Positions 52,388 through 54,025 of a DNA stretch of 64,000 nucleotides are shown here, piece after piece. The translations under genes were made by a program, and so were the position numbers. This DNA is from a virus. Lineage: Duplodnaviria > Heunggongvirae > Uroviricota > Caudoviricetes. The notes beneath the pieces are model-generated. The model had not been told where the DNA came from, did no database searches, and saw only the letters and a list, made by a program, of their open reading frames with translations. The first letter of the stretch is position 1; every line of letters starts with the position of its first letter. Location: the IMG/VR virus record IMGVR_UViG_2541047913_000007; one strand, 5' to 3'.

Positions 52388-52651
52388 TGCATGAACGTTA
52401 ATGGCATGCTGGAAAGCCCGGCTGATCGGACTGATATCAGATGCCATCTGAAACGCGCATAAAATCGCCGCGATGTATCGCCAGTCGGTACGACTGACCT
52501 TCGATTCATGACAGCCAATCATCTTCGCCAGTCCCCTTTGCGTCAGAGCTGACAGGTTGATAAGTAAATCCGTTTCAGCGCGATCGATATCGCGCTGTGA
52601 ACCGCCCCGGGAATCCTGGAGACTAAACTTCCTGAGAAAGAGGTAAACAGG

Positions 52652-52978
52652 ATGACTAAAAATACTCGTTTTTCCCCCGAAGTCCGTCAACGGGCAGTCC
52701 GTATGGTTCTGGAAAGTCAGAGCGAATATGACTCACAATGGGCGACAATTTGTTCCATTGCTCCAAAGATTGGCTGTACGCCGGAGACTCTGCGTGTCTG
52801 GGTTCGCCAGCATGAGCGGGATACCGGGGGCGGTGATGGAGGGCTCACCACCGCTGAACGTCAGCGTCTGAAAGAGCTGGAACGTGAAAATCGTGAACTG
52901 CGCCGCAGTAACGATATCCTTCGCCAGGCTTCCGCTTATTTTGCGAAGGCGGAGTTCGACCGCCTCTGGAAAAAATGA
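52652..52978 (+). CDS. IS3-family transposase OrfA (HTH)
   Basis: 108 aa [22 protein letters not shown]... with leucine-zipper-like C-terminus; A6 slippery run at the orfA/orfB overlap. Confidence 0.85.
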
Positions 52979-53865
52979 TGCCACTGCTGGATAAGCTGCG
53001 TGAGCAGTACGGGGTCGGACCGCTATGCAGCGAACTGCATATTGCCCCGTCAACGTATTACCACTGTCAGCAACAGCGACATCATCCTGATAAACGCAGT
53101 GCCCGTGCGCAGCGCGATGACTGGCTGAAGAAAGAGATACAGCGCGTATACGATGAAAATCACAAGGTATACGGTGTGCGTAAAGTCTGGCGTCAGTTGT
53201 TACGGGAAGGTATCAGAGTGGCCAGATGCACTGTGGCACGTCTCATGGCGGTTATGGGACTTGCCGGTGTTCTCCGGGGTAAAAAGGTCCGTACGACCAT
53301 CAGCCGGAAAGCCGTTGCCGCAGGCGACCGCGTAAACCGTCAGTTCGTGGCAGAACGACCTGACCAGCTGTGGGTGGCTGATTTTACTTACGTCAGCACA
53401 TGGCGGGGCTTCGTCTATGTGGCGTTCATCATTGATGTGTTTGCCGGATACATCGTGGGGTGGCGGGTCTCATCGTCCATGGAAACGACATTCGTGCTGG
53501 ATGCACTGGAGCAGGCGTTATGGGCCCGTCGACCGTCCGGCACGGTCCATCACAGTGATAAAGGTTCTCAGTATGTATCGCTGGCCTACACACAGCGGCT
53601 TAAGGAAGCCGGATTACTGGCATCAACAGGAAGTACAGGCGACTCGTATGACAACGCGATGGCGGAGAGCATCAATGGTCTTTACAAAGCGGAGGTAATA
53701 CACCGTAAGAGCTGGAAAAACCGTGCAGAAGTGGAACTGGCCACACTCACGTGGGTGGACTGGTATAACAATCGACGATTGCTGGAAAGGCTGGGCCATA
53801 CTCCTCCGGCAGAAGCAGAAAAAGCTTATTATGCTTCCATCGGAAACGATGATCTGGCAGCCTGA
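52975..53865 (+). CDS. IS3-family transposase OrfB (DDE catalytic domain)
   Basis: 296 aa with DDE-type integrase core; -1 frame relative to orfA. Confidence 0.85.
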
Positions 53866-54025
53866 GTTCACAGATAAAACACTCTCCAGGAAACCCGGGG
53901 CGGTTCACTGTGACAGTTTGCTGTAACTTGTTTGTTCCATTTCTTAAGATTTCCAATAGTGAATAGCTAGTTGAAAGGTATGCGTGGAAACGCATATGGC
54001 CTTAGTTGGTCAGATATCTTGGGGC

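Follow-up and report, generated by a model that had tools for sequence, protein, structure and literature searches.

An IS629-group insertion in the cII gene of a lambda-like prophage and its probable consequences for induction

The insertion sequence and the interrupted gene

In the early-right region of a lambda-like prophage of E. coli, the cII gene is split by an insertion sequence (IS) of the IS3 family. This is the only copy of the element in the window, that is, in the whole stretch of 64,000 nucleotides that was analysed. The features of the IS and of its target are as follows.

52598..53907, plus strand: IS629-group (IS3 family) insertion sequence, 1310 bp, starting with TGAACCGCCCC and ending with GGGGCGGTTCA
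52598..52622, plus strand: IRL, left terminal inverted repeat (inverted-repeat arm 52597-52622)
53883..53907, plus strand: IRR, right terminal inverted repeat (inverted-repeat arm 53883-53908)
52595..52597: left copy of the target-site duplication CTG
53908..53910: right copy of the target-site duplication CTG, codon 11 (CAG) of cII on the minus strand
52652..52978, plus strand: orfA, 108 aa, helix-turn-helix (HTH); Pfam HTH_Tnp_1, 7.4e-13
52975..53865, plus strand: orfB, 296 aa, DDE/rve integrase core; Pfam rve 8.3e-28, also HTH_21 and rve_3
52933..53049, plus strand: ALIL pseudoknot, predicted -1 frameshift stimulator; Rfam RF01497, 120.2 bits (gathering score 50)
53908..53940, minus strand: cII 5' fragment, 11 codons (MEQTSYSKLSQ), with the TGA stop at 53907-53905 inside the IS
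52331..52597, minus strand: cII 3' fragment, codons 11-98 and stop
53918..53950, plus strand: PRE-like promoter, TTGC-N6-TTGT CII boxes (53918-53931) and TAAGAT -10 (53945-53950)
52355..52382, plus strand: oop-type antisense terminator (11-bp stem, then a T run), overlapping cII at its 3' end

We confirmed that the element is an intact IS3-family insertion sequence. The preliminary description of this DNA had given it the same length, limits and intact orfA and orfB, and the ends, the inverted repeats and the Pfam and NCBIfam matches all agree with this. The element runs from TGAAC to GTTCA, with the TG...CA ends of the family, and its length falls in the family range of 1.2-1.55 kb. The inverted-repeat arms comprise 26 nt with 92% complementarity, which includes a base from each flank that pairs by chance. 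The two ORFs partly overlap, orfB being in frame -1 relative to orfA, and the ALIL pseudoknot spans both this overlap and an A6 slippery run at 52970-52975. Together they tile the NCBIfam model of IS3 transposases (transpos_IS3), with orfA covering positions 1-86 and orfB positions 93-369, the latter scoring 314.6 bits against a cut-off of 160. The rve domain of orfB is matched nearly end to end (positions 2-101 of 102 of the Pfam profile).

The CTG duplication reported earlier is also present on both sides of the IS and occurs as a single copy in relatives with an empty site, and its 3 bp fit the IS3 family (3-4 bp). Multi-copy repeats of the IS629 group do confuse short-read assemblies, and an assembler could in principle have misplaced a copy in cII. 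However, both junctions are continuous and the duplication is perfect; because a false join would not make a 3-bp duplication, we regard a misassembly as extremely improbable.

The name of the element deserves some care. According to the ISfinder convention, isoforms share at least about 95% nucleotide identity with the reference over the full length. The IS is 95.9% identical, with one indel, to the IS629 annotated in Stx2 phage 1717 and 96.3% identical to IS1203-type copies, whereas many non-O157 E. coli have copies differing from it by 1 base (99.9% identical), which PGAP labels only as 'IS3 family transposase'. Because of these identities, the element is best classed, on sequence, as an IS629-group isoform and not as O157 IS629 itself. 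The earlier term "IS629-like" is thus right as to the group but should not be read as the O157 element, given the 95.9% identity to the phage 1717 copy.

The insertion leaves cII with its ATG (53940-53938, minus strand) and ten further codons, the last of which, CAG, is the right copy of the duplication; codon 12 is replaced by the terminal TGA of the IS. The split after codon 11 is therefore as first described. The remaining 87 codons (52594-52331) match Pfam Phage_CII (PF05269, 1.6e-24) over profile positions 8-91 of 91, and the 3' fragment is 98.9% identical to residues 10-98 of the CII of phage PhiR5_2. When the IS and one CTG were removed in silico, an uninterrupted CII of 98 aa was restored, whose intact homologue is named 'CII family transcriptional regulator' by PGAP. 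Comparison with IS-free relatives gave the same picture, since five E. coli genomes match the empty site, with an intact 98-aa cII and no IS, at 100% identity across 1075 bp, the O104:H4 lineage matches it at 99.1%, and the alignment with PhiR5_2 stops cleanly at the IS. No Shine-Dalgarno sequence was found at the in-frame restart codons of the 3' fragment. CII is lost, because only a peptide of 11 residues can be made from the 5' part and the 3' part lacks a start codon that could be used.

We also considered a fusion of IS and cII sequences (ORF 52690-52331, with a TTG start) that might retain residual CII activity. It was rejected, as it has no Shine-Dalgarno sequence; the next in-frame ATG is residue 36 of CII, and starting there would remove approximately the N-terminal third of the protein.

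CII is the activator of PRE, PI and paQ-type promoters. The PRE-like promoter is on the strand opposite to cII, overlapping its 5' end; it survives intact 10 bp from the end of the IS, but its activator is gone. Its putative CII boxes, as read from the sequence, consist of TTGC (53918-21) and TTGT (53928-31) separated by six nucleotides and followed, after 13 nt, by TAAGAT, a spacing which we take to be that of lambda PRE.

The insertion looks recent and strain-specific, because its exact junction was missing from every collection scanned. Neither the IS with its flanks nor the left junction was found in 5426 complete E. coli genomes, both junctions were absent from the GTDB representative genomes, and the left junction was not found in IMG/VR or in the JGI metagenomes. 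An exact look-up of the junction-spanning ORF of 119 aa returned no record. In the O157:H7 matches with an IS near a lambda-type cI (H3-H30), the prophage was another one, located at thrW/proA and degraded, and the IS lay on its PL side. These matches have no bearing on the present insertion.

The early-right operon and its antitermination circuit

Judging by its sequence, the prophage is an stx-less, lambda-like element of the 933W type, integrated in ynfG and complete apart from the insertion. Of the 77 proteins of PhiR5_2, 72 have a counterpart in the window, at 93-100% identity, and these are full length and free of stops except for cII and three small hypothetical ORFs; int and xis lie outside the 64,000 nt. 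The features that bear on early transcription are listed below.

54304..54332, minus strand: PR promoter, TTGACT-17-GATAAT
54079..54279, minus strand: cro; Pfam Cro 8.1e-34, 100% identical to PhiR5_2 Cro
54380..55093, plus strand: cI repressor; Pfam HTH_3 and Peptidase_S24
54027..54039, minus strand: nutR boxB CGCTGACAAAGCG, upstream of the IS on the PR transcript
56764..56776, plus strand: nutL boxB CGCTGACAAAGCG, downstream of a lambda-type PL
56943..57326, plus strand: N antiterminator, 127 aa, 933W/H-19B type, full length; Pfam N_peptide 3.7e-14
50995..52077, minus strand: replication initiator in the O position (DnaD-like); PHROG 1701, 3.7e-152, 99.7% to the PhiR5_2 'O' protein
50248..50988, minus strand: DnaC-like helicase loader; Pfam IstB_IS21 and Bac_DnaA
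44036..44662, minus strand: Q-like late antiterminator; PHROG 753, 3.5e-68, 100% to the PhiR5_2 homologue

The order on the minus strand is thus PR, cro, nutR, cII with the IS, the O-like gene, the DnaC-like gene, the nin genes and, at the far end of the operon, the Q-like gene. This agrees with the earlier placement of the IS between PR/cro and the replication genes and upstream of Q; except for an ORF of 72 aa, the O-like gene is the first gene downstream of the insertion.

The transposase genes are oriented opposite to PR transcription, and PR transcripts would therefore carry the IS as antisense RNA. This RNA is untranslated and rut-like, with C/G ratios of up to 1.7 in 100-nt windows. Over the whole antisense IS, however, the C/G ratio on the PR strand is 1.21, compared with 1.8-1.9 in the spacer between nutR and cII. 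The spacer is thus C-richer and G-poorer than the RNA added by the IS, and its composition indicates that the operon already needs N-type readthrough. On their way to Q, PR transcripts further encounter a block of 1646 nt in which the genes face the other way, as well as two good hairpin terminators (48721-48703 and 46403-46384). The isolated phage PhiR5_2, which is viable and grows on K-12, has the same layout of antisense block and terminators. A strong hairpin terminator within the IS was sought on the PR strand, and the only candidate was a weak 5-bp stem in IRR (53898-53886).

Modification of the polymerase by N is the phage's own way past both Rho-dependent and hairpin terminators. Transcription complexes carrying lambda N are resistant to Rho (PMC12360218), and the N protein of H-19B overcomes tR1, tR1-trpt' and tR' alike (PMC3526286). 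In the window, the exact boxB 13-mer CGCTGACAAAGCG occurs at nutL and nutR only, and both sites are also found in PhiR5_2 and in the prophage of UPEC-245U.

The N protein itself is 99.2% identical to the N of EDL933-Stx, Min27 and PhiR12_5, but it carries an R14H substitution in the arginine-rich motif (ARM), whose core reads HRRER instead of the otherwise invariant RRRER; position 14 is an arginine in all 110 cluster representatives of the family (110/110). In the N of H-19B, the ARM substitutions R15C/P, R18P and R3H abolish function at tR1 (PMC3526286). From its sequence, N with R14H may be a hypomorph, and if R14H does weaken N, the IS would be polar. The H14 allele was found in no deposited phage record (best match 99.2%), but 562 contigs carry it, and prophages with complete early regions have it in at least three contexts, one being the ynfG prophage of O104:H4. 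Six loci with the allele were checked, and none of them has the IS.

An outward promoter in the IS driving O/P, the other possibility raised in the preliminary description, was looked for at both IS ends, and none was found at the standard threshold or at a lax one of 7-8 matches out of 12. The terminal GGTTCA of the IS forms -35-like sequences with its flanks (TTCACA or TTCACT), with no -10 following at 16-18 nt. Such a route to O/P is therefore neither needed nor seen.

The same search bears on the opposite direction of readout. The IS genes face PRE, cro (in antisense) and cI, no terminator-like hairpin was found between the orfB stop (53865) and cI, and the PRE-like element is undamaged. 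Transcription of the transposase strand past the right end of the IS might thus rewire the switch, yielding a cI mRNA independent of CII together with an anti-cro RNA, and hence a hyper-stable lysogen. Nevertheless, even with 7-8 of 12 matches allowed, neither the transposase genes nor the right IS end showed a sigma-70-like promoter, and the native promoters of IS3-family elements are weak, which makes such rewiring very improbable.

Consequences for the prophage

The insertion is genuine and inactivates cII, but events of this type are ordinary. We favour, with a probability of about 0.55, the reading that a recent IS jump produced a cII-null, still inducible prophage whose progeny would lysogenise poorly. 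This rests on gene content and on analogy with published phages, which suggest that the IS probably does not by itself stop induction.

According to this reading, an IS629-group element predicted to be competent for transposition would have jumped into codon 11/12 of cII in the resident prophage, in this strain only. The insertion would have no effect in the repressed lysogen, whose PR is off and whose maintenance does not involve CII. Once the prophage is induced, transcription from PR would cross 1.3 kb of C-rich antisense IS RNA, within which an unmodified polymerase would mostly be halted by Rho. N would load at nutR, upstream of the IS, and take the polymerase through, a task that it also faces at the tR1-like spacer, along the 1.65 kb of antisense genes and at the hairpin terminators that precede Q. 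Since N would carry the polymerase through the IS, replication and late genes are expected to be switched on, perhaps at a somewhat reduced level; antitermination is never complete, and O/P/Q expression would probably suffer to some degree. Progeny phages would contain the IS and act as cII-null phages, with clear plaques and poor lysogenisation, and what would be curtailed is onward lysogenic spread, not escape from the present host. The loss of CII is the certain consequence, and it affects re-lysogenisation by the progeny and not induction. In the longer term the IS could seed adjacent deletions, as in two other prophages considered below.

The preliminary description had gone further, proposing that the IS is polar on PR transcription, that the prophage may be unable to replicate or to express its late genes on induction, and that its accessory cargo is locked in as a result. 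The position of the IS in the PR operon, between nutR and O/P, stands, but the functional part is not supported as stated, since the IS lies downstream of nutR in a prophage with a full-length N and matching nutL and nutR boxB sites, and the operon already crosses antisense genes and terminators as PhiR5_2 does. Published precedents point the same way. The lambda r14 insertion lies within cII and r32 close to the cII ribosome-binding site. Both insertion elements enhance termination and yet the phages plate on wild-type E. coli, being crippled only on nus mutants, so that lambda on wild-type hosts tolerates IS1 and IS2 in the PR-proximal region (PMC4807359). Stx2a phages with one to three copies of IS629, and of up to 65.3 kb, were induced and packaged (PMC4587872). 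The accessory cargo proves to be an Eib-like YadA-anchor protein, IbrAB-like proteins, Lom and HigBA, with no toxin gene among them.

Strong polarity, with O, the DnaC-like gene and Q off on induction and the prophage locked in, is in our view unlikely but a serious possibility. Its most credible route is that R14H weakens the binding of N to boxB and that, with 1.3 kb of Rho-sensitive RNA added, readthrough would fall below the threshold. The site of the IS between nutR and the replication genes, the untranslated, C-rich RNA that it contributes, and the lack of an outward promoter that could rescue O/P are all consistent with this, as are the invariance of R14 in the family and the inactivating ARM substitutions in the N of H-19B. 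On nusA1 and delta-nusB hosts, moreover, r14 and r32 show a greater defect than the wild type (PMC4807359). On the other hand, the H14 allele is not private to this prophage, and its occurrence on hundreds of contigs and in several complete early regions argues against a dead N. If N could not cope with the IS, the native antisense block and terminators would probably defeat it as well, in which case the IS would add little.

Between a competent and a dead N there is room for a lock made of two components, in which a hypomorphic N-H14 would just suffice in the IS-free prophage and the IS RNA would tip readthrough below what is needed. We consider this rather unlikely. If true, it would be a natural counterpart of r14 and r32 on nus-mutant hosts, arising from two mild changes, and it would be reversible by precise excision of the IS or by a helper phage with N-R14. 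Under our preferred reading of an inducible, cII-null prophage, the IS would matter for induction only if the activity of N were partial.

It could also be that the IS is a neutral passenger in a prophage already defective for lytic growth through N-H14, int/xis or another lesion outside the window. IS629-group elements are very abundant (31,133 places in 4264 genomes) and often reside in prophages (PMC4587872), R14H alters an invariant ARM position, int and xis fall beyond the window, and the ynfG prophage of UPEC-245U has a truncated N, indicating that the family does decay at this gene. However, the genes shared with the viable PhiR5_2 are full length at 93-100% identity, unlike those of an old, decaying prophage, and the H14 allele persists in several complete-looking prophages. 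We therefore find a passenger role improbable. A literature search on the inducibility of the O104:H4 ynfG prophage found nothing, and no paper on PhiR5_2 was found.

The wider interest of this allele lies in how inducibility is predicted. Over the short term, lambdoid prophages of pathogenic E. coli vary mainly through elements of the IS629 group, and whether an insertion grounds a prophage decides if its cargo can still move. A position in the early-right operon is by itself insufficient to call a prophage locked; what decides is intact N antitermination, which here hinges on one ARM substitution shared with the prophage of the O104:H4 outbreak lineage. The case is a reminder that predictions of prophage inducibility should include a look at N and the nut sites. 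Its value is otherwise modest, i.e. a clean natural cII::IS allele with IS-free relatives of isogenic quality, and the cargo (the Eib-like adhesin, IbrAB-like proteins, Lom and HigBA) carries minor medical weight.

Comparison with known systems

The element shares with the IS629/IS1203/IS3411 group its length of 1310 bp, TG...CA ends, repeats of ~25 nt, the A6 run with ALIL pseudoknot and the 3-bp duplication, and its orfA (108 aa) and orfB (296 aa) are as long as those of the IS629 of phage 1717; it differs from O157-type IS629/IS1203 in being only 95.9-96.3% identical. IS629 is the chief source of within-type variation in the 933W-type Stx2a phages of O157:H7 (Yin et al. 2015, PMC4587872), which resemble the present case in combining the same IS group with 933W-type genomes. 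The sites occupied there, however, are downstream of stx2, in roi, in a lysozyme gene, in a methyltransferase gene and intergenic (PMC4587872). None of them is in cII, and for none was a location between nutR and the replication genes demonstrated. The roi insertion was left out of our evidence, as the text of that paper does not give its location relative to Q.

In late transcription, a 2.4-kb ISEc8 in stx2A, upstream of the lysis genes, left lysis kinetics unchanged, with no delay (PMC6776261). This precedent concerns antitermination mediated by Q and not by N.

PhiR5_2 (PV340546.1), the ynfG prophage of UPEC-245U and its O104:H4 counterpart are collinear with the window at 96-99.8% identity and share the cI-cro-cII-O module, nut sites and integration site of the present prophage. 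All three differ from it in having an intact 98-aa cII and no IS, and they differ from each other at N, with N-R14 in PhiR5_2, N-H14 in the O104:H4 prophage and a truncated N in UPEC-245U.

Insertions at a comparable place were found in E. coli O103:H2 strain 129 and in MDR_56, in which an IS1203-type element lies at or just past cII in a prophage of lambda immunity, in the same orientation relative to cI/cro as the IS described here. These are of a different isoform (96.3%) and have different insertion points. There, the IS abuts either a truncated terminase gene or the lysis genes, the whole region from cII or O to Q having been deleted, whereas nothing is deleted beside the IS in the window.

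A parallel is provided by lambda r14 (IS1) and r32 (IS2), lambdoid phages that likewise have an IS between nutR and the replication genes. There, the IS adds termination and makes growth more dependent on N and Nus, with viability retained on wild-type hosts (PMC4807359). The present insertion differs in being an IS3-family element of 1310 bp, antisense to PR, that inserted naturally in a resident prophage. Furthermore, r14 and r32 are laboratory mutants of a phage with lambda N, whereas the N of the window is of the H-19B/933W type and carries R14H.

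Insertion of the element into cII

The insertion element occupies exactly positions 52598-53907 (1310 bp), starting with TGAACCGCCCC and ending with GGGGCGGTTCA, and its terminal inverted repeats of 26 nt are 92% complementary. CTG flanks it on either side (52595-97 and 53908-10), and deletion in silico of the element and one CTG regains a cII gene of 98 codons. Over 1075 bp the restored region matches the empty cII site of five E. coli genomes at 100% identity and that of the O104:H4 outbreak lineage at 99.1%, and the alignments of the window to PhiR5_2 (PV340546.1), an isolated phage relative free of the element, and to the UPEC-245U prophage stop exactly at the element's ends. 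Given the restored cII, the matching empty sites and these alignment breaks, the insertion and its 3-bp duplication are genuine and no chance resemblance; an assembly artefact appears extremely improbable. Comparison with such relatives had been proposed in the preliminary description, whose coordinates, size, target duplication and placement after codon 11 all agree with our base-level check of the ends, the CTG copies and the cII codons.

Features of the window discussed in the text
52652-52978, plus strand: orfA of the element, 108 aa, Pfam HTH_Tnp_1
52975-53865, plus strand: orfB of the element, 296 aa, Pfam rve, rve_3 and HTH_21
ATG at 53940, minus strand: cII; codon 11 (CAG) is the right-hand CTG copy
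54332-54304, minus strand: PR, TTGACT-17-GATAAT
54380-55093, plus strand: lambda-type cI
55140-55682 and 55670-56446, plus strand: two-gene block in the rex position, downstream of cI; DUF6978-like/DUF1828 pair
56943-57326, plus strand: N, 127 aa
52077-50995, minus strand: DnaD-like initiator in the O position
44662-44036, minus strand: Q-like antiterminator, PHROG 753

Codon 11 of cII is followed by TGA, made of the final bases of the element, which leaves a stub of 11 residues and a 3' part without a usable start; cII is destroyed. A PRE-like promoter remains intact 10 bp to the right of the element (TTGC-N6-TTGT at 53918-53931, 13 nt, TAAGAT), and an oop-type terminator on the plus strand overlaps the 3' end of cII.

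Identity of the element and spread of the insertion

The overlapping orfA and orfB, both on the plus strand, tile the NCBIfam IS3-transposase model (positions 1-86 and 93-369), orfB scoring 314.6 bits against a cut-off of 160. An A6 run lies within their overlap, inside an Rfam match to the ALIL pseudoknot (120 bits; gathering score 50), a stimulator of -1 frameshifting in the IS629-type group, and all IS3-family structural traits tested were found. Identity is 95.9% to the annotated IS629 of Stx2 phage 1717, 96.3% to IS1203-type copies and 99.9% to copies in many non-O157 E. coli. Judged from its sequence, the element is an isoform of the IS629 group; the earlier name "IS629-like" is to be read in that sense, and assignment to IS629 proper, judged by identity, is borderline.

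Searches of 5426 complete E. coli genomes, of IMG/VR and of JGI metagenomes did not find the exact junction with cII, both junctions were absent from the GTDB species representatives, and exact look-up returned no record of the junction-spanning ORF. With its ORFs and inverted repeats intact as well, and its flanks identical to those of empty sites, the element appears to have transposed recently, and in this strain alone, into a prophage already resident; this fits the biology, since a cII-null phage would lysogenise poorly. The literature documents IS629-group insertions in 933W-type phages well, and no published site found there lies in cII. The case is a fresh and cleanly documented one of a known type of event, with the R14H allele of N as its one less ordinary thread.

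Over the longer term the element may seed deletions. In the lambda-immunity prophages of O103:H2 strain 129 (locus L002 from NZ_AP038976.1, 2501-4050) and MDR_56 (locus L003 from NZ_CP019903.1, 2501-4147), an IS1203-type element in the same orientation as ours lies at cII or 44 bp past it and abuts a truncated terminase gene or lysis genes, the whole cII/O-to-Q replication segment beside it being deleted.

The prophage and its cargo

The window begins in the host gene ynfF and the remainder is a 933W-type short-tailed lambdoid prophage, ynfG being the integration site in relatives; it contains no stx or tRNA genes. Its plus strand also bears a lambda-type PL and nutL. On the minus strand the order is PR, cro, nutR, the interrupted cII, a 72-aa ORF, the O-position initiator, a DnaC-like loader, nin-type genes and the Q-like gene, which places the element between PR/cro and the replication genes, as previously claimed, with its genes antisense to PR transcription.

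All 77 annotated proteins of PhiR5_2, deposited with K-12 MG1655 as stated host, were compared with the window, and 72 have a counterpart. With cII and three small hypothetical ORFs set aside, the counterparts have their full length and no internal stop, most with 93-100% identity, and cII is the only shared gene that is split. On gene content, the rest of the prophage is intact within the window, the integrase lying just past its end.

The cargo comprises an Eib-like YadA-anchor protein, IbrA/IbrB-like proteins, Lom, a HigBA pair and a Panacea-domain protein. The YadA-anchor protein (371 aa, 24069-25184, minus strand) shares only 50% identity with its counterpart in PhiR5_2, suggesting that an adhesin cassette was swapped. 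The rex-position pair, also present in O103:H2 strain 129, UPEC-245U and O104:H4, weakly matches the PADLOC candidate defence system PDC-M24 A/B (E 3.8e-4 and 5.4e-7). A 2793-aa ORF (6503-14884, minus strand), of a type typical of 933W-type phages, is called an LPD38 domain protein in a relative. The Rfam sRNA STnc100 is matched twice over its full length (42817-43026 and 43302-43495, minus strand; 130 and 139 bits) in a 1.4-kb ORF-poor gap between Q and a nanS-like esterase gene, the position of stx genes and tRNAs in Stx phages. At the prophage end adjoining ynfF, two sRNA-Xcc1 matches (Rfam; 2395-2483 and 2932-3017, plus strand; 69 and 73 bits) each stand just upstream of an antirepressor-like gene (2524-2805; 3058-3684). 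The 72-aa ORF that separates cII from the O-like gene contains two near-identical direct repeats of about 60 nt (52108-52170 and 52200-52260), and diverged copies lie in the O-like gene (51336-51421); iterons connected with the origin or a partial duplication of a gene may explain them.

Transcription across the element

Past the 11-codon stub, the PR transcript contains 1.3 kb of untranslated antisense RNA with a C/G of 1.21 overall and up to 1.7 in 100-nt windows. Untranslated RNA richer in C than in G is the type on which Rho acts, and the element would probably be polar if antitermination were absent; to that extent the predicted polarity on PR stands. The PR strand of the element has only one weak hairpin terminator-like site. 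An outward promoter driving O/P had been considered, and the promoter scan found none at either end that could rescue downstream genes. Readthrough from the element boosting cI, encoded on the same strand as orfA and orfB, seems very improbable.

The element lies downstream of nutR. The window contains the exact boxB 13-mer CGCTGACAAAGCG only twice in its 64 kb, close behind PL and close behind cro, in each case on the transcribed strand, and PhiR5_2 has the same pair. N is full length, of the H-19B/933W type and 99.2% identical to the N proteins of several phages, among them Min27 and the EDL933 Stx phage; measurements on this type have shown that tR1, tR1-trpt' and tR' are read through (PMC3526286). 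The native nutR-cII spacer itself has a C/G of 1.8-1.9. Between the replication genes and ninB-Q lie 1646 nt of oppositely oriented genes (47327-48972, plus strand: HigB-like, HigA-like, DUF4145), and two good hairpin terminators (48721-48703 and 46403-46384, minus strand) stand on the way to Q, so late-gene activation from PR must read through them. There is only one strong internal promoter (47359-47330), and terminators then precede ninB-Q. PhiR5_2 shares this layout, and strong antitermination is, by this reading of the gene order, already required by the PR operon.

That promoter (minus strand, sigma-70-like, 11/12 matches) precedes isrK (47245-47323) and then a C4 antisense RNA (47134-47219), with an ORF6N/P22_AR antirepressor gene (47109-46408, minus strand) immediately downstream; 47134-47359 looks like a P1 immI-like c4-ant module within a lambdoid nin region.

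There is also precedent. Lambda r14 and r32, whose insertion elements enhance termination, still plate on wild-type E. coli and are crippled only on nus mutants (PMC4807359). With the 2.4-kb ISEc8 in stx2A, within the Q-antiterminated late operon and upstream of the lysis genes, lysis kinetics equal those of the repaired strain (PMC6776261). Particles induced with ciprofloxacin yielded Stx2a phages of up to 65.3 kb that bore one to three copies of IS629 (PMC4587872), so the extra 1.3 kb poses no packaging problem. The upstream nutR with N, the pre-existing barriers and this precedent argue that the phage's own machinery would override the polarity. If N works the element is bypassed, and if N fails the prophage is already blocked at its native barriers; logically, the element can tip the balance only where N is partly active. 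A neutral hit on a prophage grounded already by other causes would accord with failure of N, but is set against the intact gene complement, and we regard it as unlikely.

The caveat that keeps polarity alive is the R14H change, the only difference between N of the window and that of PhiR5_2. Residue 14 (codon 14 of 56943-57326, plus strand) belongs to the RRRER core of the arginine-rich motif that binds boxB and is Arg in 110/110 full-length cluster representatives aligned down to about 65% identity. In H-19B N the motif is 12-RSRRRER-18, and R15C, R15P, R18P, S11F and R3H abolish antitermination at tR1 (PMC3526286). Strong polarity, most plausibly in synergy with a weak N-H14, is a minority reading, though the foremost of the alternatives. 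H14 occurs in no deposited phage record, yet 562 contigs carry it, compared with at least 1000 that carry R14. Among the H14 carriers are the O104:H4 outbreak strain's prophage in ynfG, a prophage whose immunity region differs and one integrated at wrbA, all three with complete early regions, and the element is absent from every other N-H14 prophage examined for it. In the otherwise near-identical, element-free sister prophage of UPEC-245U (locus L004 from NZ_CP049845.1, 12534-12602), the N gene is a 69-nt remnant; from such sequences, the prophage family also decays at N.

Our preferred reading, with a probability of about 0.55, is a cII-null but inducible prophage in which N bypasses the element and whose progeny lysogenise poorly. 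In the lysogen the insertion would have no effect; once the prophage is induced, N loaded at nutR would take polymerase through the element, and replication and late functions would go ahead, though perhaps less strongly. Phage released from the cell would carry the element and be unable to activate PRE, hence clear plaques and poor lysogenisation. The preliminary description saw the cargo as locked in; under this mechanism its spread by lysogenic conversion would be hindered rather than the cargo locked in the cell. By layout, the situation resembles lambda r14 and r32, phages with insertion elements in the PR-proximal region, whose defining phenotype is N-suppressible polarity.
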